DNA of 58,863 nt, counting the filler, from Malassezia furfur (lineage: Eukaryota), in the NCBI GenBank assembly GCA_052055015.1. It is 2 parts of 2 records of this genome, joined end to end, with 100 filler letters (N's around TTAATTAATTAA, not from the genome) between each part and the next. Parts side by side here need not be neighbours in the genome. Positions count along the whole stretch, not along the records: positions 29,490 to 58,863 come from JBQJIT010000105.1; 1 more part is not named here. One strand, 5' to 3'. Position 1 is the stretch's first letter; each line of letters opens with the position of its first letter. The notes under the pieces were generated by a model. That model was not told the DNA's origin and did no database searches. It was given only the letters and a program-made list of their open reading frames with translations. Position numbers and translations under genes: made by a program. Below are positions 25,076 to 58,863 of this stretch, piece by piece.

Positions 25076-28000
25076 ATGACCTCGCAAGATTCGATCGACG
25101 AGTCGCTGTACAGCCGGCAGCTGTATGTGCTGGGTCATGATGCGATGAAGCAGATGTCATCGAGCAGCGTGCTTATTGTGGGCGTGCAGGGGCTCGGTGC
25201 CGAAATTGGTACGTTGTGACGCCACACACTGACGCAGCCAAAAATACGGCGCTTGCGGGCGTCAAGAGCGTGACGCTGTACGACCCGGCGCCCGTCGAGG
25301 TCGCAGACCTGAGCACGCAGTTCTTCCTGCGTGCCGAGGATGTGGGCAAGCCAGGCGTGACGCGCGCGTCGGCGACGGCCGCACGCCTCGCCGAGATCAA
25401 CACCTACGTGCCCGTCAAGGCGCTCGAGGTGCCTGAGCTCACGCGCGAGGTGCTGTCGCAGTTCCAGGTGGTGGTGCTGTGCAACCAGCTGCTCACTGAG
25501 CAGCTGCGTGTGAACGACCTGACACACAACACTGCGACGCATTTCCTTGCCGCGTCGATCCACGGCCTGTTTGGCAGTGTGTTTGCCGACTTTGGTCGCG
25601 ACTTTGTGTGCAAAGATGCTACTGGCGAGCAGGCGCTGTCCGGCATGGTGGTGTCGATCGACAAGGACGGCGAGGGGCTCGTCACGACGCTCGACGAGAC
25701 GCGCCACGGCCTCGAGGACGGCGACTACGTCACCTTCTCCGAGGTCGAGGGCATGACGGAGCTGAACGACATCGAGCCGCGCCGCGTCACGGTCAAGGGC
25801 CCGTACACCTTCACGATCGGCGACACGTCGTCGTTCGGCGACTACAAGCGTGGCGGCCTGTTCAAACAGGTCAAGCAGCCGGTCAAGTTGCAGTTTGCGT
25901 CGCTACGCGAGAGCCGTGCGGCACCCGAGTGTCTCGTGTCCGACTTTGCCAAGATGGACCGCCCGCCGCTGCTGCATGTTGCGTTCGAGGCGCTGTCGCA
26001 GTTTGCCGAGGCCGCGCAGCGCCTGCCGCGCGCGCGCAACGACGAGGACGCCGCGGCGGTGCTGGAGCGTGCGCAGGCGCTGGCGACCGAGCGCAAGGTG
26101 CTGCCCGAGGATGAGGCGGGCCAGAAGCTCTTCACGATGCTCGTCAAGGAGCTCGCGTACCAGGCGGTGGGCAACGTGTCGCCGATGGTGGCGTTCATTG
26201 GCGGTTTTGTCGCGCAAGAGGTGCTCAAGGCGTGCAGCGGCAAATTCCACCCGCTGATGCAGTACATGTACGTGGACTGCCTCGAGGCACTCCCCAGCAA
26301 CATTGCGACGCTGCCTGCGAGCGAGTTCGCGCCGCAGGGCACGCGCTACGACGGGCAGACGGCCGTGTTTGGCACCTCGTTCCAGCAGCGCATCGGCAAT
26401 GCGCGCCAGTTCCTGGTGGGCTCGGGCGCGATTGGCTGTGAGATGCTCAAGAACTGGAGCATGATGGGCCTCGGCAGCGGTCCCCAAGGGCAGATCTATG
26501 TCACGGACAACGACACCATCGAGAAGAGCAACCTGAACCGCCAGTTCCTCTTCCGGCAGCAGGACGTGGGCCACTTTAAGGCGGACACGGCCGCCGCGGC
26601 GGTCGCTGAGATGAACCCGGACCTCAAGGGCAAGATCCAGAGCTTCCAGAACCGCGTGGGCCCCGAGACGGAGGATGTGTACGGTGACGAGTTCTTTGAG
26701 CGGCTCGACGGCGTGACCAACGCCCTCGACAACGTCAACGCGCGCCAGTACATGGACCGCCGCTGCGTGTACTACCAGAAGCCGCTGCTCGAGTCGGGCA
26801 CGCTCGGGACCAAGGCCAACACCCAGGTGGTGGTGCCGAACCTGACCGAGTCGTACTCCTCGTCGCAGGACCCGCCGGAGAAGTCGATTCCGGTGTGCAC
26901 CCTGAAGAACTTCCCGAACCAGATCGAGCACACGATCCAGTGGGCGCGCGAGCAGTTTGACGAGCTCTTTTTGAAGCCGGCCGAAAACGTCAACCTGTAC
27001 CTGACGCAACCCGACTTTGTCGCGTCGCTCGGGACGAGCGATGCGGGCGCCAAGCAGCAGCTCGAGCAGGTCAAGGAGTACCTGGTCGACGCGCGCCCGC
27101 AGACGTTTGACGCGTGCATTGCGTGGGCGCGCCTCAAGTTTGAGGAGAACTACGTCAACATGATCAAGCAGCTCCTCTACAACCTGCCGGCGGACGCCGT
27201 CACCTCGACGGGCCAGCCGTTCTGGAGCGGCCCGAAGCGTGCGCCGACGCCGCTCTCGTTCGACCCGAGCAACCCGCTGCACATGAACTACGTCGTGGCC
27301 GCGGCCAACCTGCACGCCGCCAACTACGGCCTGAAGGGCTCGGCGGACCCCGAGGTGTACCGCCGCGTGCTCGAGCAGGTGTCGGTGCCTGCCTTCACGC
27401 CCAAGTCGGCCAAGGTGCAGATCAACGACAACGACCCTGTGCCCGCGGCGAGCAACGCCGCCGAGGACGAGGCGAGTGTCGAGGAGCTCGCGGCGAGCCT
27501 CCCCGCGCCGAGCTCGCTGTCGGGATACCGCCTGCAGCCGATCGAGATGGAGAAGGACGACGACACCAACTACCATATGGCGTTCATCACCGCCGCGTCC
27601 AACCTGCGTGCGGAGAACTACTCGATCCAGCCCGTGGACCAGTACACCACCAAGGGCATTGCAGGCAAGATCATCCCCGCGATCGCCACCACGACGGCGC
27701 TCGCGACCGGCCTGGTCAACATCGAGCTGTACAAGCTGCTGGACGGCAAGATGGACATCGAGAAGTACTCGAACGCGTTTGTGAACCTCGCGCTGCCGTT
27801 TATCGCGTTCAGCGAGCCGATCGCTGCGCCGCGCCACAAGTACAACGACACCGAGTGGACGCTCTGGTCGCGCTTCGACATCGAGGGCGACGTGACGCTC
27901 CGCGCGTTCCTCGACTACTTCCGCGAGAAGAAGCTCGATGTGACGATGGTGTCGAGCGGTGTGTCGATGCTCTACTCTGACTTTATGCCGCCCAAGAAGA

Positions 28001-28164: not shown

Positions 28165-29389
28165 CTATGCCAGTTTTTGCGCCTCGTGCAGCACATCCAT
28201 GCCCATCGTGAGCGCCTGCTGCCGCAGCGACGCCAGCCGCGCATCGTCGCCCCGGCGCGTCGCGGCATGCGCCGCATTTTCGGCCACATACGCCCGGCAC
28301 GCCGCAACCATCGCCGAGGCACGCATGCGCACCACCATCGCCGCACGCGCCGCACCGGCCGGGCGCGTATTCACGTACTGTACCAAATTCGCCGCCATCA
28401 CCATCGCTCGCAGCGCCAGCTGGTGCGCATCCACCAGCGGCAGCGTGCACTCGGGCATCAGCATGCGGCCCAACACCGCGTCCGTCGTCGGCGACAGCAG
28501 CCGCGCACACGCCGCAGGCGACGACGTGAGTGTCGCGAGCGTGCCGGACGCCGCGAGCGCTAGTGCCACCGCCGTCGCGTCCGGCGTCCCACCGGTCAGG
28601 TCGCTGAGCGACACGAGCAGCTGCAGGCGCCCGCGCGCCGTGTGTAGCCGCAGCGCCACCGCGCCCCCTTCGTCGCGACGCACCGGCTCCTCACTAAACT
28701 CGCCGCCCTCGGCGACAGGCGTCGCGCCGTGCGCAGTGTCCTCGGCTTCGCCGGACCATTCGGCAAAGGTCGCCTCGTCCTGCACCAGATTGCACAGCAG
28801 CTCGATCAGCGCCCGACGCACCATCGGCTCGTCGTGCTGCAAAAAGAGCGGCACGATGGCGCGCTCGACCGTGCTGTGCTCTGCGTCGCGCGGCGCCGCC
28901 GGCGGCGCACGCGCCACGGCGCCCGCCAGCGCGGGGCTGACGCTCGCGAGGTTCGTCAGTGCCATCGCCGCCTCGAACAGCTGGAGCAGTGTGCCTTGCG
29001 GCACAAAAAACAGCGCCGCGACGTATTGCACGCCCTGCTCCGTCGCCCCGTCCTGCCGGAAGAGCAGCGCCGGGTCCGTCGAGATGCACAGCTTCGCAAG
29101 CGCCTGCAGCGCCGACACATCGGCGTTCGCGGCACGCTCTGCACACGCCGCATATGCATCCTTGCACAGCGCGACCACTGCGCGGCCCACACCAAGCTGC
29201 AACAGTCGGCCCCGCAGCGGCGTGTTTTGCTCCGTCACCAGCGAGAGCAGCAGCGCCGACAACGTACGCCGCAGCTCACTGTCCACCGCGGACGAGGTAC
29301 GCAGCGCGAGCGCCACGAGCGGCGGCACACACCCGGCCTCGACCACCGCACGCGCACGCCGCGCCGCGTCCGCGGGCGCCACCGGCGGC
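28165..29389 (-). CDS. UCS-family myosin chaperone (She4/UNC-45/CRO1), 5' part lost in gap
   Basis: RGRLLQLG, ALQALAKLCISTDPALLF, LLQLFEAAMALTNLAS, MVRRALIELLCNL. The frame runs into the N gap. Confidence 0.82.
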
Positions 29390-29489
29390 NNNNNNNNNNN
29401 NNNNNNNNNNNNNNNNNNNNNNNNNNNNNNNNNTTAATTAATTAANNNNNNNNNNNNNNNNNNNNNNNNNNNNNNNNNNNNNNNNNNNN
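29390..29489. other. Assembly gap / artificial linker (44 N + TTAATTAATTAA + 44 N)
   Basis: N runs flank a 12-mer giving stops in all six frames (29434-29445). Confidence 0.97.
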
Positions 29490-30376
29490 CCATTGCAGCC
29501 GGTGCATCCGATAATCGCAGGTGCGCCGCCGACGCCCACGCCGCGCGGGCTGGCACACCCACCGCGGGCCACTGGCGAGCTCGGACGCGACGTCCAGCGC
29601 CTCAGAAAACGTGTGCATCACCGCATCGAGCGCGCCGGGCGGCGCATCGTCGCACGTCGGCAGTGCGTACCGATGCCAGAGTTGCGCTGCGTCAGCCGCC
29701 GCACGTACCTGCACGGGTCATCGCAGGATACGCGTCTTGCGCCATGTACGCATCCAGGTCATTGCCGCACAGCACCAGCCCACGCAGCTGCACCGCATCC
29801 CAGTTGGCACGCAGCACCGCCTCGTACAGCGCACGGGGGCATTTCGGCATGTACACGAGCGTCGGGCGGTCCAGGGTATATTCCCCGCACTGGTCAGCCG
29901 CACGCACGTACTTTGTTTTGCGCCGGAAGTGCCATGCCTAGACGCGCAACCAGCGCGCAGTCCTGCGCATCAAACAGCGGATCGTAGATCGTCACGGCGC
30001 ACAGACCCGGGGGGTGTTGCTGCGTGAGCACAGGTCGTACCTCGAGGCGCGCACGGAATGCCAGCACCATCGCCAGCTGGAACTGCGCCGCGGACGTGTC
30101 GAGCTTGCCGATTCCGAGGCACAGCAGGCGCTCGGGCGCCTCCTTGCGCGCACGCAAAGCATTGACGACCGCTGCGTCAGTGCACCACCTACCGTCCAGG
30201 CGCGCGCGCGCTTGGTCGTACTCAAGCTGCGCTAGCTTCGCCTCGATGGCCGCGACAAGGCCTTCAATGTGTACCGCGCGCTCCTCCTCGCTCTGCTCCG
30301 CCCACGTCTTGGGTGCTGCACGCGCAGCGCCCCGCCGGCGCCGGCGCCGCGAAGCAGTCCAGACTTCCTCGCCCAT
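29490..30376 (-). CDS. SRR1/Ber1-like protein, 3' end at gap, spliced
   Basis: LLCLGIGKL...AQFQLAM, IYDPLFDAQD, PTLVYMPKCPRALYEAVLRANW, LCGND, HTFSEA. Introns at 30020-30040, 29890-29911, 29687-29708. Confidence 0.8.
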
Positions 30377-51776: not shown

Positions 51777-54192
51777 ATGAGCGCACATGCAGCGAGTGCG
51801 GTCGCGCCTGTGCGGCGCGCCGACGACCCCGCGGCGCGGTCTGCGGCGCCTGCGCGTGCTCCGCTAGAGCGTACGTTGCACCGACTCACTCGCAGCGCTG
51901 TATTTGGAGCCGGGCCCACTGAACCGCCTGTACCTCTCGGTGTGCTCGGGGATTCCGTCGCAGGTCGCCTGGGCGCTCGCGCGTCTTGCGCTATACACGC
52001 AGCAGCTTGGCGACCGCTTCCAACTCGCCGACTACCCCGGGCTAGATGAAGCGTTGGTGCGCCTCGTGCGCCGCTTGACGCTCGCACTGCAGGGAGCGCC
52101 GCGCGCCGATTGGGACGACGACGTGCCCGACGTCACCGCGAGCAACCTGCGCGTCGACCAAGGCATCGGTGCCCCCGGCGAGAACGGCGGTATGGATCTT
52201 GCTGCAACGCACGTCGCATTTGCGCGCGCGCGCGCGCCCGAGGCGGTGCCTGCGGCATTTGCACCGCAGCAGGTCACGCGCGATGCAACGCTGCTCCAGC
52301 ACGCGGCGGGCGCCGCTCTCGTCCTGCGCAATGTCGTACTGAGCGCCGCGAATGCAGCACAGCTTACTGTGGTGCCCGGTGTGCTGCAGGTGGTGTACGA
52401 GCTCGCGCACGCCACGATCGATGCGCCCGTTTCGCTCCGGGGGGGTGCATGGGCCGACGTGCGCGGCAATGCGCTCGACATCCTCGAGGCGCTCGCGCCG
52501 CGCATCGTGCTAAGCGAGTGGGTACGCGTAACGTACGGCCAGCGCACGGCGCCCGAGCCGCGCGCCGCACCGACGCGCACCGAGGACCAGGTGTTTGCGA
52601 TGCTGCACACCCTCCTACACACGACGCGTGACCGTGCGCTGCTGCTCGCGAGTCTGCGATGTCTGCGCGCGATCGCGATGAACGAGGCCAATGTGCCGCA
52701 GCTCGTGGACGCCACGCCGCAGCTCGAGCCGACGCAGCTAGGGCTCACGGCGCGGTGTGTTGCGCTGCTGCCGCTCACGCAGGACCCGGAACTGCTTGAG
52801 GCGGCCGTCGACTTGCTGTACCAGATCGCGGCTACGGGCGAGAACGCGCTGCTCCTCGGCACGCTCACGCTCGCGGACGTGTGCGACGCGGGCTACGGCA
52901 CGGGCCTCGCGCGCCGTGCGCTGCACGAGGTGGACACGGCGGCCGACGAGTGCGCGCCGACAGACACGTCGCTGGCGCGTGCGGTCGTGGCGTACCTCGC
53001 GCGCAACGTCGACCTTGGCAAGACGGTGTGGGAGCGCGACTCGGTGATGAGCGCCAACACGAGCGCCGCATGGGCAGCTCACGTCCCGAGCGCCGCGCGC
53101 ACGCGTCGCGAACGCGAGCGCGAGCGCCGCCTGCGCAAGGAGCACGCCACGCCGCAGGAGCGCGCCAAGTGGAAGGAGCTGACGCGCGACGAGCTCGAGC
53201 GTCTCCGGTGGCTGGACGAGCCGGTGCGCGGCATTGAATGGTGCGTGCGTGATTGACGCAGGATGCAGTTGCTGTTTGAGCGCGATCCCCAGGGCGAGGT
53301 GACGCAGATGGAGTTCTGGATTGCGTACCGCGACCAGTTTACGCCGATCGCCGCCGAGGGCGGCGTTGCCCTGCAGCCCGCGGCGAACCTGATTCGCAAT
53401 GTGTCGCAAACCTTCCCGGGGGCGGCGGCGGTGGTCATCCCGTCGACAATGGGCGCACAGCCGCGCTTTATCATCCGCGGCATCTCGGTGCGCGACCGCA
53501 GTATGCCGCGCATCGAGTGTGCGTGGGAGGCGTGCCCGGCGCCGCACGTCGGCGACTGGGACGCCGTACGCGAGCACCTCGCCGTGCACGCCCAGGCGGC
53601 GCGCGACGGACAGTGCCGCTGGCGCTCGTGTGCGTACGCGGTCGACCCGCGCGACCCGCACCGCGCTGTACGGCTGTATGCGCACGCGCTGACACACACG
53701 CCACGCGATACGCCCATGGCCACGGCGCAGCCCGCCGAGGGCACGCAGGAGAGCCCGGGTGTGATCACATTCACCGTCGAGCGCACGCCGTCGGTGCCGA
53801 ATGCGACGCCAGGCGAGGCGCCGCTGCCGTGCGGCGTCGCGTTCCTCTCGGCGCTCGTGCTGCGCTTCGTGGCGCGCGCGGCCCACAATGTGCTCAAAAG
53901 CGCAGGGCAGGGGTGCCCACCACAGACGTACGGCGGAGCACAGGAGGCCGCCGCACAGCCAGGCGACCGCGACGAGCGATTCGGGTGCCCCGTGCCGCGC
54001 TCCGTGCAGGACGCGATGCAGGACGCCGCGCAGCAGGCATCTGCGCTCTCGCCGCGGCACATGGCCGCCGCGACGACGATCATGGAAGCCCTGGCGCTCG
54101 CGGAAGAGGGTATGGTACAAAGCTCGTTGCGGAACGACATCCTATGTCGTCTACTGAACGATATTCTCGTGGCCATCCGGCCCGTAGCGTAG
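51777..54192 (+). CDS. RSC9: RSC chromatin remodelling subunit Rsc9 (ARM repeats + RFX-like domain), spliced
   Basis: GPLNRLYLSVCSGIPSQVAWAL, W|MQLLFERDPQGEVTQMEFWIAYRDQF, AANLIRNVSQTFPGA, RFIIRGI, C/H zinc-finger-like segment. Confidence 0.82.
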
Positions 54193-54247
54193 CGCGTCGA
54201 GAATGTAACGATACATGCTGGGTGTGAGTCGGTTCGCGGGGGAGGGA

Positions 54248-54332
54248 GGGACCATCAGGGAAAAGGTGTCTATCATGAAGATCGGTAGTCTAACATATGT
54301 GACTCGCCGAAGCGAAAGCATCCTTTGGTCCC
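54248..54332 (-). ncRNA. Box C/D snoRNA, snR58/SNORD104-like (LSU rRNA Cm guide), intronic
   Basis: Terminal stem GGGACCA/TGGTCCC, box C AGGATGC, box D CTGA, D' CCGA preceded by guide CACATATGTTAGACT, complementary to the LSU rRNA motif AGUCUAAAC-type segment after GGACCAAGG (AGUCUAAC). Confidence 0.75.
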
Positions 54333-54401
54333 ATATGTACGTACCGTGATAGAGTGCGGTCATGTGAGTCGTTAGAGGAAGTGCGGAGCCGTATGAGTCG
54401 G

Positions 54402-56909
54402 TCAAGACGATGGCGACGATGCAGGGGCATCCGTCGAGGCGGCAGGAGGGTCCGTTGCGGAAGGTTCCGAGGCGGCGGGCTCCTTTGCAGGGTCTTTCTC
54501 CGCGGCAGCGTCGTTCGCGGGCTCCTCGCCCTGACGCATCTCCGCCGAGGCGTCCTTCGCGGCGGTCTCCGCACCCTTGGAGGCTTCTGCCTGTGGGTGC
54601 TCCGCGATGGATTCTTCGCCCTTTGGCGCCTCAGCGGAGGCGTCCTTCGCCGCGTTCTCGTTCGTCCCGGCCCCAGATGCATCCGCAGGCGGTGCGGCGC
54701 CGTCTTTGGACACGGATTTGAACACATGCCGCTGAACAATGCCCTCGCAGTGCGCCAGCTCGTCCATGAGCTCCTGCTGCACCTGCTGAAACGTGTGCAC
54801 ATACTCAGCGAGCGCCGCACGCAGGTCCGCGACCTTTTCGCGCTCGAACCGCTGCATCTCCTTCTTGCACAGCGCCGAGACATCCTCAAAGCGGTTCTGC
54901 AGCGCGGCACTCACAAGCTCGGCATTCGACACCGCGCGCATCTGCGCATCGATGTGCCCATTCGCCGTGCGCTTGTGCCGCGTCTTGAGCTTGGCGAGGT
55001 CGTCGTCGGCGCGCTGCCACGCATTCCACACGTCGATGCGCGTCGCAAACGCCTTGCGGACGCTGCCGATCAACCGCTCATACTCGTAAAATACAAGCTG
55101 GAGGACGTGCGACTCGTGCGACGCCAGCCGCATCGACGCCTCCGCACTGCGCTTCTTGAGCTCCGCAAGCGCACCAAAGCACGTCGACACGCTGCGCGAC
55201 AAGGCGCCGCCGGACAGCGTGACGAGGTGCTTGTACAGCACGGTTTGCGCCTCCGCAAGTTCTTGGCGCCGCTGAACGAGTGTGTGGATCGCCGCGACAA
55301 TGTCACGCAGGCGCGCCTCAAGCTGCGCGAGGTACTCGAGCTGCTGGTTGAACCACTCGTCCGTCTCGCGGAAGCGCACGTTGTACAGCGACTGGCTCCA
55401 CCCCAGGTACGTCTTTTGCTCGGGCGTCACGACTGCACCCTTGACCGCGTCGCGCGCCTTGATGTCGACCGCGAGGTGCGTGCTCTTGAGGAAGAGCACG
55501 AGGTCTTCGTCCTTCTGCAGCAGGGGATGCTCGAGCATCTTTTGCAGCGCCTGCTCCAACGCACGCTGGCGGAACTCGACGAGGTCGGGCTTCATGTTGT
55601 TCAGCTTGACCTTTTCGGGGATCGGCGGCACCACCACACCGGGGTGGTTGTGTACGAGCGCCGCATGCAGCCAGCGGAACTCGCTGTAGCGCCGCAGCGC
55701 CGACCATTCGGCCGGGCCGCCAAGCCACGCCGCATCGGTGGCCACACGCACCGTGTACACCACGTGGGACGAGACACGGTCGCTGATCCGCTGCGGATTG
55801 CACACGCGCACGGAAAACGTCGCACTCAGCGCAGTGTCATCGCGCGGTGGCGCAGCGGCGAGAGGGGTATCGGTCGGCGAGCGAACGCCGTAGCGCGCCT
55901 CGTCATCGTCCGACGCAGCAGCCGGCGCGTCCGGAGCGGGTTTGTCCTTCGGCGCATCGGCCGGCGCATCGTTCACGTCCTTTGGCGGCGGAGGAGGGCC
56001 GCGGCGCACTAGGTACTCCCGCCACCACGTCGCAAATGCGACGCACTCCATCGGCAGGCCGAGCGCCGCCGAAGCCTGGGTATCGAGCTGGCAGTTGCCA
56101 GGCCGCTGCGTCGTGGCATTGGGGTCCGGTGTCCGCTCGGGTACGAAGTGGTCCGTCGCGATCTTGGTGCCGCACGCCGCTTCCCACGCCGCAGCCATCG
56201 CAAGGCACATGTCGTACTTGGTCATGGGCTCGGCCGCGGAGAAGTGCAGGATCGGCGGGAGCGGCCCCTTATCGTAGGCACACACGGCCAGCAAGAACTG
56301 CGCAACATCGGACACGTTCGTAGGGAACCGCACGCCATGGGCGTCCATCTTGGCCGGCGTCGTCTTCAGCAGGGCGCCCAGCAGCACATTCACGGCCGAC
56401 TCGCCGTCGTATTCCGTGTCGCCGTAGAGCACCGGCACGCGCACGCATGTCGCCTGCCCCGGCTTAGCCGCGGCCGCGATCGCACGCTCCGCATCGAGCT
56501 TGCTCTGCCCATACGCATTGAGGGGGTGCGGTGCGTCGTCTGGGCGGTAGGGCGGGTGGGCCCCGTCGAAGACGTAGTCGGTCGAGAGGTGCACGAGGCG
56601 CGCGGGCCGCTCGAGCGCCGCACATGCTGCCACCAGCTGTGCCGGCACATTGACATTGAGGCGGCGCGCCTCATCCGGGTGTGCCTCCATCGCATCTGGC
56701 CGGCGCTCGGCGGCGGTGTGGATCACCGCGTCCGGCTGGACGTCGGCGAGCAGTGCACGCACCGCGTCGGCGTCACACAGGTCGAGCTTGCGTAGCGCTC
56801 CGTGCGCACGCGAGTGTGCGATGCCGACCACGTCGTCGCCGCGTGCCTGCGCGGCCGCGACGACGGCGCGGCCCAGGAGCCCCGAGGCGCCCGTGACCAG
56901 CACACGCAT
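54402..56909 (-). CDS. Fusion of RmlD/MAT2B-like NAD(P)-binding domain with PX-BAR sorting nexin (Vps5/SNX1-like)
   Basis: VLVTGASGLLG, HTAAERRPD, STDYVFDG, YGQSK, RVPVLYG, then in the same frame PX (HVVYTV, RRYSEFRWLH, PGVVVPPIPEK) and BAR (FRETDEWF, EYERLIGSVRKAF, CKKEMQRFEREKVADLR). Confidence 0.85.
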   Translation of the reverse strand: MRVLVTGASGLLGRAVVAAAQARGDDVVGIAHSRAHGALRKLDLCDADAVRALLADVQPDAVIHTAAERRPDAMEAHPDEARRLNVNVPAQLVAACAALERPARLVHLSTDYVFDGAHPPYRPDDAPHPLNAYGQSKLDAERAIAAAAKPGQATCVRVPVLYGDTEYDGESAVNVLLGALLKTTPAKMDAHGVRFPTNVSDVAQFLLAVCAYDKGPLPPILHFSAAEPMTKYDMCLAMAAAWEAACGTKIATDHFVPERTPDPNATTQRPGNCQLDTQASAALGLPMECVAFATWWREYLVRRGPPPPPKDVNDAPADAPKDKPAPDAPAAASDDDEARYGVRSPTDTPLAAAPPRDDTALSATFSVRVCNPQRISDRVSSHVVYTVRVATDAAWLGGPAEWSALRRYSEFRWLHAALVHNHPGVVVPPIPEKVKLNNMKPDLVEFRQRALEQALQKMLEHPLLQKDEDLVLFLKSTHLAVDIKARDAVKGAVVTPEQKTYLGWSQSLYNVRFRETDEWFNQQLEYLAQLEARLRDIVAAIHTLVQRRQELAEAQTVLYKHLVTLSGGALSRSVSTCFGALAELKKRSAEASMRLASHESHVLQLVFYEYERLIGSVRKAFATRIDVWNAWQRADDDLAKLKTRHKRTANGHIDAQMRAVSNAELVSAALQNRFEDVSALCKKEMQRFEREKVADLRAALAEYVHTFQQVQQELMDELAHCEGIVQRHVFKSVSKDGAAPPADASGAGTNENAAKDASAEAPKGEESIAEHPQAEASKGAETAAKDASAEMRQGEEPANDAAAEKDPAKEPAASEPSATDPPAASTDAPASSPSS

Positions 56910-56968: not shown

Positions 56969-58863
56969 ATGATCGCCGAGGCGTGGGCGGCCGCCGAGCG
57001 CGCCGAGCGCGCCGACGGCGTGGGCGAGGTGCGTGAGAAGCTCACACAGGCATGGGCGTATGTGGAGCGTACGTTTGATCCGAGCGCACCGGCGCCCGCG
57101 GACGTGCGCGAGAGCGGTACGTGGTCCGACTCACACAGCGCCGGTGCAGCAGGCCTTGAATCAGGTGCACGCGCGCCTAGACGGTCTCGACGCGTGGTAC
57201 CTCGATGCGTGCGACCGTGTGTTTGCGCGCTTCTGCCACGTCACACTTGCGCCGCTGCACGATGCGGGCGCGCACAACGCCGTCCCTGGCGCCATCGACG
57301 CGTGTTATAATTGGGTGTGCACGCGGCATGCGCTGCTCGGCACCGACCGTGGCGCGCTGGGCGTGCCCGGCACGAGCGCTGCCTTCCTGATGCAGTGCCA
57401 GACGCACTTTACCCTCGCGATGCGCCCCGCGGCGCTCGAGACGCTCGCGGCCTACTTTGCGCACGGACTGTCCAGTGCACACAATCACATTGTCGCCGAC
57501 GCCGAGTGTATCCAGGTGGCCGCGCAGCTGCGTGCGCTCGGCCTCGCGACCTACGTACAGGGCGTGCTCACCACCACCGCAACACAGCTCCTCGAGGCCG
57601 CCGTGCGCCGCGAGACGCACGGCGCGACCGTACATGCGCTGGAGCACGCGGCATTCCCGCGGATGCACGACCTGCTCCAGACGCAGCTCGTGCCGGCGCT
57701 CGAGGCGCTGCTCGAAGCGCGCCCCGGCGGCGTGCACCTGCTGGACGAGCCGCTGCGCGACGCGTGGGACACGAGTGTATCCCACGTGCACGACGATGCG
57801 CTGCATGCGAACCCCGAGCAGGCGTCGCTGTACCTGCGCCTCGAGTACCGACTGTCGCGCGCGCTGGGACATGCACGGTACGTGCGCCCACTGACGCAGC
57901 CTGGCACAGCTGTTCGACATTGTCGGCACCTACCCACGGAGCCGTGCGGCGCTGAGCGATCTGATGGTACGCCGCAGCACTGACGCAGGTATGGCTCGAA
58001 AAGTCGGACGAGCGCGTAGCGGTCGCCGAGGCGTTCCTGGCAACGCTGCATGCGCGCCTACTGCACCCCGGCGTGGACACGCATGCGATCCTCGTGTACT
58101 ACGTCAACATTGTGTACGCGCTGCGGCTCGTCGATACCTCTGGCGTGATCCTGTCCAAGGTGCTGCCGCCCGTGCAGCGCTACCTGCGCACACGCCCCGA
58201 CATCATTCCCGCGGTCGTCAATGCGCTGCTCGGTGACGACGATGCGTTCGCGCTGCTGCGCATGGAACTGGCGAGTGCAAGTGCCTCGCTGAGCCGCAGC
58301 GCGCGGCTGCAGGAGGACGACGCGGCGCAGGCGCGGCCCGAGTACTGGATGGACCCGACGTGGACGCCGCGGCCCGTCGACGCGGGCCCCGAGTACAGCC
58401 AGATGCGCACGCGCGACGTGATTGACTTGCTGGTGTCCATCTTTGACGACCACAACGGGTTCATCCACGCGCTCGAGGAGCACACCGCGCAGCAGCTCGT
58501 GCGCACGCAGGACTACGATACGACGCGCGTGGTACGTGTGCACGCTGACGCAGCAACGCAACAACGACATCTTCAAGCGGCGCTTTGGCGAGAGCAGTCT
58601 GCACCACTGCGACGTGATGCTCGCCGACATTGCCGCGTCGCAGACGAGCGACGCATCCTTCCACACGGCGCGCGACGCGGCGCTGCGCACCACATCCGCG
58701 CCCGCCGTGCACGCGCTCGTCATCTCGCGCCAGTTCTGGCCAGAGATTGACACGCGCACGTTTACGCTGCCGCGGCGCATGTCTGAGGCGCTCGAGGCGT
58801 ACGCAGCGCACTATGCCGCGGCGCAGCGCAAGCGGCGCGTCAAGTGGCTGCCGTACCTCGGCA
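56969..58863 (+). CDS. APC2: Anaphase-promoting complex cullin subunit Apc2, 3' end outside window, spliced
   Basis: LFDIVGTYPRS, RLLHPGVDTHAIL, VQRYLRTRPD, WTPRPVDAGPEY, FKRRFGESSLHHCDVMLADI, VISRQFWP. Confidence 0.88.

Follow-up and report, generated by a model that had tools for sequence, protein, structure and literature searches.

What does a long, intron-like segment do behind the stop codon of a gene in a fungal region of very short introns? We addressed this question in a 58,863-nt stretch of the Malassezia furfur assembly GCA_052055015.1 (the window, filler included), which joins two parts of two records and of which positions 29,490 to 58,863 come from JBQJIT010000105.1. The putative intron lies on the minus strand, past the end of a gene that encodes a fusion of an RmlD-like domain with a Vps5 sorting nexin. 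In our assessment it probably contains a genuine box C/D small nucleolar RNA (snoRNA) carrying two guides, which would be released from this intron of the 3′ untranslated region (3′ UTR) of the RmlD-like/Vps5 fusion gene.

We scanned the window for kink-turn (K-turn) frames, composed of a stem, a 2-4-nt bulge, GAUG, 45-130 nt, CUGA and the other stem half. No frame in the window other than the candidate (canonical bulge of 3 nt, stem of 7 bp) reaches a stem length of 6 bp. The candidate has the following parts.

54218..54344, minus strand: putative spliceosomal intron of 127 nt, with splice signals of the local consensus
54248..54332, minus strand: candidate box C/D snoRNA of 85 nt, from the K-turn frame scan and folding
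54326..54332, minus strand: 5′ half of the terminal stem, GGGACCA, 7 bp with UGGUCCC at 54254-54248
54318..54324, minus strand: variant box C, AGGAUGC (consensus RUGAUGA)
54303..54316, minus strand: possible hairpin, UUCGC-UUCG-GCGAG, in the spacer that separates box C from the D′ guide
54287..54301, minus strand: D′ guide of 15 nt, CACAUAUGUUAGACU, with G54290 as the fifth base upstream of D′
54282..54285, minus strand: box D′, CCGA, recognised by its sequence
54270..54276, minus strand: box C′, AUGAUAG, 5 nt after D′
54259..54269, minus strand: D guide of 11 nt, ACACCUUUUCC, with U54263 as the fifth base upstream of D
54255..54258, minus strand: box D, CUGA, with the 3′ half of the terminal stem (54254-54248) immediately after it

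An initial annotation of this DNA had proposed an 85-nt RNA with a 7-bp terminal stem, the box C variant AGGAUGC with an intact GAUG, a CUGA and a D′ box CCGA, and all of these are present where it had placed them. The GAUG is preceded by a 3-nt bulge (AAG) and lies opposite CUGA; in the K-turn scheme, the two would form G.A, A.G, U.U and G-C pairs, with the box C deviations falling outside this core. The terminal stem is formed in the minimum-energy folds of both the RNA and the whole intron. The UUCG hairpin, which was part of the same proposal, is there in the sequence (-5.0 kcal/mol when folded alone) but is absent from the predicted minimum-energy fold; it could shorten the longer first spacer. 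Boxes D′ and C′ are both present but degenerate, as is usual for these boxes in eukaryotes. The RNA also has a compact, archaeal-like symmetry, with an 11-nt spacer between C′ and D and a 5-nt loop between D′ and C′.

Most of the case rests on the guides. The D′ guide reads CACATATGTTAGACT (54301-54287) and is the exact reverse complement of AGTCTAACATATGTG. AGTCTAACATATGTG, the guide's complement, occurs 1 time in the window, against 0.03 occurrences expected even if 2 mismatches are allowed; a full-text literature search for the 15-mer returned no match. Scanning a prokaryote genome collection for AGTCTAACATATGTG gave 86 stretches, 79 of which were scattered bacterial or archaeal sequence with unrelated flanks. 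The other seven were short contigs (L047, L056, L060, L065, L079, L095 and L117) that read ...CCCGTCTTGAAACACGGACCAAGG, then AGTCTAACATATGTG, then C[GA]AGT..., such that the 15-mer target stands directly after ACGGACCAAGG. All five contigs tested are Rfam LSU_rRNA_eukarya (E from 1e-18 to 1e-272), and the seven are eukaryotic ribosomal DNA contaminants or mis-binned contigs, carrying large-subunit (LSU) ribosomal RNA (rRNA) sequence, in assemblies labelled bacterial, archaeal or metagenome-assembled genome. The target aligns to the Rfam consensus GGAGUccaacguguguGCgAG, with a 5′ part that is near-universal and an AUAUGUG part that is lineage-specific in the Rfam alignment.

With these LSU fragments the D′ guide forms 15 consecutive Watson-Crick pairs (5/5 fragments; -22.7 kcal/mol with L095), and the fifth base upstream of D′, G54290, pairs with the C of AGUC in every one of the five. 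Among the 85 antisense matches of at least 11 nt between the window and the five fragments, the D′ guide is the longest and the only one common to all five. Both the complementarity to LSU rRNA and the placing of the +5 position on the C of AGUC, as originally put forward, are thus borne out in the LSU of other eukaryotes.

We then asked which methylated nucleotide this C represents. For this region of yeast 25S rRNA, the modification list of PMC5199042 gives m1A645, Am649, Cm650 (guided by U18) and Cm663 (guided by snR58). Arabidopsis Cm675, assigned to AtsnoR58Y, is equated with human Cm1340 and yeast Cm663 in the corresponding entry of PMC8583080, and human 28S-Cm1327, in an older numbering, is assigned to SNORD104 in the entry of PMC8677024. 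In the LSU contigs, the positions 13, 14 and 18 nt before the C of AGUC (-13, -14 and -18) hold C, A and A, which match Cm650, Am649 and m1A645 and therefore fit the C of AGUC being the Cm663-equivalent. A second register, on the C of UAAC, also fits the -13/-14/-18 count and is a point on the other side. We prefer the AGUC register because of the position of primer LR3, presumably 635-651, which agrees with it to within one base, and because of the yeast sequence, which presumably also favours it. The assignment to the snR58/SNORD104 site made in the initial annotation is accordingly supported by the register, by the -13/-14/-18 count and by published site tables, the rRNA being that of other eukaryotes; our literature search found no paper naming both the yeast and the human guides.

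For the D guide, matching was done with the 14 bases upstream of box D. Its best match in L079 and L095, which are the two fragments covering the region, is ACAAAAGGTGTTGG, in the context ...CCCACAAAAGGTGTTGG... The predicted duplex with ACAAAAGGUGUUGG has 9 Watson-Crick pairs (54261-54269) plus G54270.U, at -11.9 kcal/mol, and places the third A of the run opposite the fifth base upstream of box D (+5). This second target lies 540 nt (L079) and 525 nt (L095) downstream of the first, and in both fragments a G stands 9 nt downstream of the predicted A. In the yeast list, Am1133 (guided by snR61) comes 470 nt after Cm663, and position 1142, nine bases on, is a G (PMC5199042). The equivalent nucleotides are Arabidopsis Am1143, assigned to AtU38, and human Am1871 in the entry of PMC8583080, and human Am1858 is assigned to SNORD38A/B in that of PMC8677024.

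These matches are suggestive of a D guide that targets the Am1133-equivalent, the site of snR61, U38 and SNORD38. Two observations count against this target: the next-best D-guide matches in the same fragments have 8 Watson-Crick pairs, one fewer, and L065 has a different sequence at the Am1133-like site, with no D-guide match. The D guide had been described as having no recognisable target; with its best LSU match at the Am1133-like site of L079 and L095, it is probably not an orphan. We also considered the D guide as an accessory pairing element beside the first target, where 8 Watson-Crick pairs and 1 G-U pair can form with ACAAGGGTGTC, a site that in L079 follows the first target by 20 nt. 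This role, which the D guide may still have, was not adopted because the match occurs in one fragment only and without a known methylation site.

The RNA is flanked by splice signals that can be compared with those of the region. On the minus strand, the putative intron has GTACGT at 54344-54339, GACTCAC at 54230-54224 (branch A at 54225) and CAG at 54220-54218. These three signals, the 57-nt spacing from the stop codon and the 127-nt unit are all present as first proposed. We searched the window with a short-intron pattern (GT[AG]NGT, then CT[ACG]A[CT], then YAG) and obtained 39 matches, most of them between 21 and 29 nt long (mode, 22 nt), whereas 30 dinucleotide shuffles gave 4.6 on average. 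At 127 nt, the intron is about 5 to 6 times this local norm, in keeping with the earlier estimate. Two short introns are confirmed by a continuous reading frame, one of 29 nt at 25209-25237 (plus strand), within a ubiquitin-activating-enzyme-like gene, and one of 21 nt at 53241-53261. Very short introns are typical of Malassezia genes, as noted in a passage of a review (PMC7426719).

Local introns recurrently begin with GTACGT and end with (C)GACTCAC-N-CAG or CTGAC-N-CAG, and the candidate intron shares its GTACGT, GACTCAC and CAG exactly with the local introns of ~22 nt. On both strands of the window, GTACGT occurs 62 times (0.53 per kb) and GACTCAC-N0-8-CAG 6 times (0.05 per kb). From these frequencies, the chance that any one 85-nt element has the first signal in the 20 nt ahead of it and the second in the 40 nt behind it is ~2e-5. 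Within 170 nt of the minus strand here, the branch-site-like motif CGACTCA is found three times (54400, 54371 and 54231), compared with 13 times on both strands of the whole window; two of the three local copies fall in the 57-nt UTR segment upstream of the 5′ splice site. Further ultrashort intron matches are found elsewhere, for example at 57117-57138 (plus strand) and 13862-13839 (minus strand).

How often would such an arrangement arise by chance? Frames with a stem of at least 7 bp occur 0.67 times per dinucleotide-shuffled window, and the K-turn plus terminal-stem frame alone is not beyond chance; its combination with the guides is. In a joint test, which combined the frame with a 15-nt antisense element and a D-like box, 0 of 2622 shuffled windows contained such a combination, and one reached 14 nt. 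Independent of the way in which the LSU fragments for this test were obtained, the 15-mer occurs in real LSU genes at exactly that site.

The genes on either side define the setting of the putative intron.

54402..56909, minus strand: presumed host gene, an uninterrupted 835-aa open reading frame (ORF) with stop codon TGA at 54404-54402
54345..54401, minus strand: 3′ UTR segment of 57 nt, from the stop codon to the putative 5′ splice site
51904..54192, plus strand: convergent neighbour gene, two ORFs (450 aa and 309 aa) joined in frame through the 21-nt intron at 53241-53261

The host ORF encodes an RmlD/MAT2B-like NAD-binding domain fused to a PX-BAR Vps5 sorting nexin (Pfam RmlD_sub_bind, 1.9e-56; PX, 1.2e-21; Vps5, 1e-42). 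Related fusion proteins show identities of 84% in M. brasiliensis, 75% in M. obtusa, 64% in M. psittaci and 62% in M. yamatoensis, and one further relative, to which no name was assigned, is 93% identical. These identities place the window in the furfur clade of Malassezia. The RmlD/Vps5 fusion is also found in Tilletia, Ustilago, Sporisorium, Pseudozyma, Exobasidium, Ceraceosorus and other Ustilaginomycotina, as well as in many Malassezia species. The presence of this architecture in many named proteins of the Ustilaginomycotina indicates that the fusion is old within this group.

In the neighbour gene we detected no Pfam domain at E values up to 0.001. The two genes converge with an intergenic gap of only 209 nt, and 25 nt would separate the start of the putative 3′ exon from the stop codon of the neighbour. 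This short interval, positions 54193-54217, is richer in A and T, reads CATGTATCGTTACATT on the minus strand and has UGUA-like elements on both strands. As a guess from its sequence, this stretch might be a shared poly(A) region.

On this basis we propose the following course of events. The fusion gene would be transcribed beyond its stop codon, and the 127-nt intron would be spliced out of the 3′ UTR. After debranching of the lariat, exonucleases would trim both sides to the small nucleolar ribonucleoprotein (snoRNP), whose core would be defined by the terminal stem and the C/D K-turn. The RNA protected in this way would start 12 nt after the 5′ splice site and end 23 nt before the branch A. 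Within the snoRNP, the D′ guide would pair with LSU AGUCUAACAUAUGUG directly after the universal ACGGACCAAGG and bring fibrillarin to the C of AGUC, which corresponds to yeast Cm663, Arabidopsis Cm675 and human Cm1327. The D guide would most likely pair with AAAAGGUGU(U), ~500 nt further on, where the third A, which corresponds to yeast Am1133, Arabidopsis Am1143 and human Am1858, would probably be methylated. The motifs, their geometry, the complementarity to the LSU of other eukaryotes and the agreement between these splice signals and the local consensus were observed or computed; expression, splicing, the host transcript and methylation in M. furfur are what we infer from them. The intron may be kept in the UTR only for the release of the snoRNA, as the initial annotation had suggested.

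Several findings speak against a functional, intron-derived double guide and have to be set against this proposal. Box C matches the consensus at 5 of 7 positions, deviating at positions 2 and 7 with the GAUG core intact. Folding energies do not stand out (RNA, z = -2.07; intron, z = -0.20). Across the window all Rfam families stayed below their gathering scores, and on the minus strand of 54000-54600 a search at E values up to 10 gave no snoRNA family, just an irrelevant viral element. The LSU fragments belong to other, unknown eukaryotes and were retrieved with the guide's own complement, and since they were retrieved with the 15-mer itself, the result of 0 in 2622 shuffles is partly circular. 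At least one frame with a stem of 7 bp or more was present in 58 of 100 shuffled windows, and under a loose criterion, with an antisense element of 10 nt, 244 of 2743 shuffles gave a frame with a guide. With 25 nt to the neighbour's stop codon, a downstream host exon must run antisense into the 3′ end of the neighbouring gene. Finally, when the fusion protein was sought in metagenome contigs by means of a 21-sequence alignment, the search returned 35 loci and 0 Malassezia orthologues, all 35 matching only the N-terminal RmlD/MAT2B-like domain at identities of at most 49%.

The snoRNA might also be real but produced by another route, whether from its own promoter, from a separate non-coding host starting within the end of the Vps5 frame, or by nuclease excision from an unspliced read-through transcript. 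Independently transcribed C/D snoRNAs are common in yeasts, and the convergent gap of 209 nt can hardly accommodate a normal 3′ exon together with a poly(A) site. These routes do not account for the perfect GTACGT, 12 nt ahead of the RNA, or for the equally perfect local branch and 3′ splice signals that lie 17 to 30 nt past its end, given the calculated chance of ~2e-5, and we regard them as unlikely, though worth keeping in view. The box C variant raises the different prospect of a decaying or inactive snoRNA copy, in which AGGAUGC would be too degenerate to assemble Snu13, Nop58 and fibrillarin. The 2 of 7 positions that are off include the usually conserved U2 and A7, and the RNA matches no C/D family of Rfam. 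Short snoRNAs drift fast and often match no curated family. The GAUG core, the 3-nt bulge, the perfect 7-bp stem, the perfect 15-nt guide and the perfect intron signals are all intact, which is not what decay should leave behind, and this compact genome discards unused sequence (PMC7426719); an inactive copy seems very unlikely to us.

The shuffled windows show how readily ordinary 3′ UTR or intergenic sequence might come to hold a GAUG, a CUGA, an inverted repeat and an rRNA-like 15-mer, with frames bearing long stems in more than half of them and loosely defined guides in a smaller share. Chance resemblance of this sort would have to place the 15-mer at the exact site of conserved methylation in seven independent eukaryotic LSU contigs, in exact register to D′, together with a second guide in register at a second known site and splice signals on both flanks, and none of the shuffles held a 15-nt antisense element in frame. 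We consider it highly improbable. A box C/D snoRNA with two guides, released from the 3′ UTR intron of the fusion gene, remains the explanation that we favour.

By its targets, this candidate snoRNA belongs with snR58 of yeast, snoR58Y of Arabidopsis and human SNORD104, and probably also with snR61, U38 and SNORD38. As in the first set, its antisense element covers ...GGAGUCUAAC... directly after ACGGACCAAGG and has the C of AGUC at +5. Unlike them, the Malassezia RNA has this guide upstream of D′, a second functional-looking guide and the box C AGGAUGC, and it shows no sequence similarity to them by Rfam models at E values up to 10. Yeast snR58 presumably has a single target. With snR61, Arabidopsis U38 and SNORD38A/B the RNA would share a target if its D guide, ACACCUUUUCC, pairs as predicted with AAAAGGUGU(U), the third A, at +5, being consistent with the conserved Am site; it differs from them in having just 9 Watson-Crick pairs and 1 G-U pair with the LSU of other eukaryotes, and no Rfam match. 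Here two guide functions would reside on one 85-nt RNA, whereas the site entries for yeast, Arabidopsis and human assign them to separate snoRNAs (PMC5199042, PMC8583080).

Its location can also be compared with known systems. Intron-poor fungi, including M. sympodialis, keep snoRNA-bearing introns such as those holding snR59 in RPL7 and snR191 in NOG2, according to a section of Lim et al. (2021, PMC8476143). The present case is similar in being a long putative intron, filled mostly by a candidate snoRNA, in an intron-reduced lineage. It differs in that the RPL7 and NOG2 introns interrupt coding sequence of ribosome-biogenesis genes, whereas the putative intron here belongs to the 3′ UTR of a fusion gene for membrane trafficking that has no ribosome link. 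For human cells, Colombo et al. (2017, PMC5238794) describe an intron more than 50 nt past the stop codon as the feature that best predicts nonsense-mediated decay, and report that genes hosting snoRNAs are enriched among its targets. As in those decay-prone snoRNA hosts, the junction here would fall beyond this distance, at 57 nt after the stop codon; unlike them, the host here encodes a conserved protein and is not a disposable transcript.

A bolder reading would combine these features: one archaeal-style RNA would have merged the guides for Cm663 (snR58 type) and Am1133 (snR61/U38 type), and each splice that releases it would mark the Vps5-fusion mRNA for nonsense-mediated decay. If this were true, snoRNA output would be traded against expression of a trafficking protein. 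We hold this to be improbable as a whole. As it stands, the RNA is a well-formed but ordinary box C/D guide, and current understanding of snoRNAs is unchanged by it; two old guide functions on one RNA, a variant box C and a 3′ UTR position are modest curiosities. What is new is a concrete, testable snoRNA annotation for a Malassezia genome, with two predicted LSU methylation sites and, for the first of them, a predicted LSU sequence. It exemplifies the view that snoRNA-carrying introns are retained in intron-poor fungi, and its 3′ UTR position offers a simple basidiomycete-yeast system for asking if snoRNA release and host-mRNA stability are coupled. Our searches, which took in the main text of the fungal snoRNAome paper with its one line on snR58 (CD_68), turned up no paper listing snoRNAs of the furfur clade.

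Elsewhere in the window, other candidates were considered and rejected. At 25123-25237, an intron-like match of 115 nt that includes a box-C-like AUGAUGC is ubiquitin-activating-enzyme-like coding sequence together with the 29-nt intron described above. An 11-nt antisense match at 9123-9113 reads as coding sequence. Other K-turn frames, at 28846-28945 (plus strand) and 45420-45300 (minus strand), have 5-bp stems and no guide. The window also contains two runs of 44 N each, at 29390-29433 and 29446-29489.

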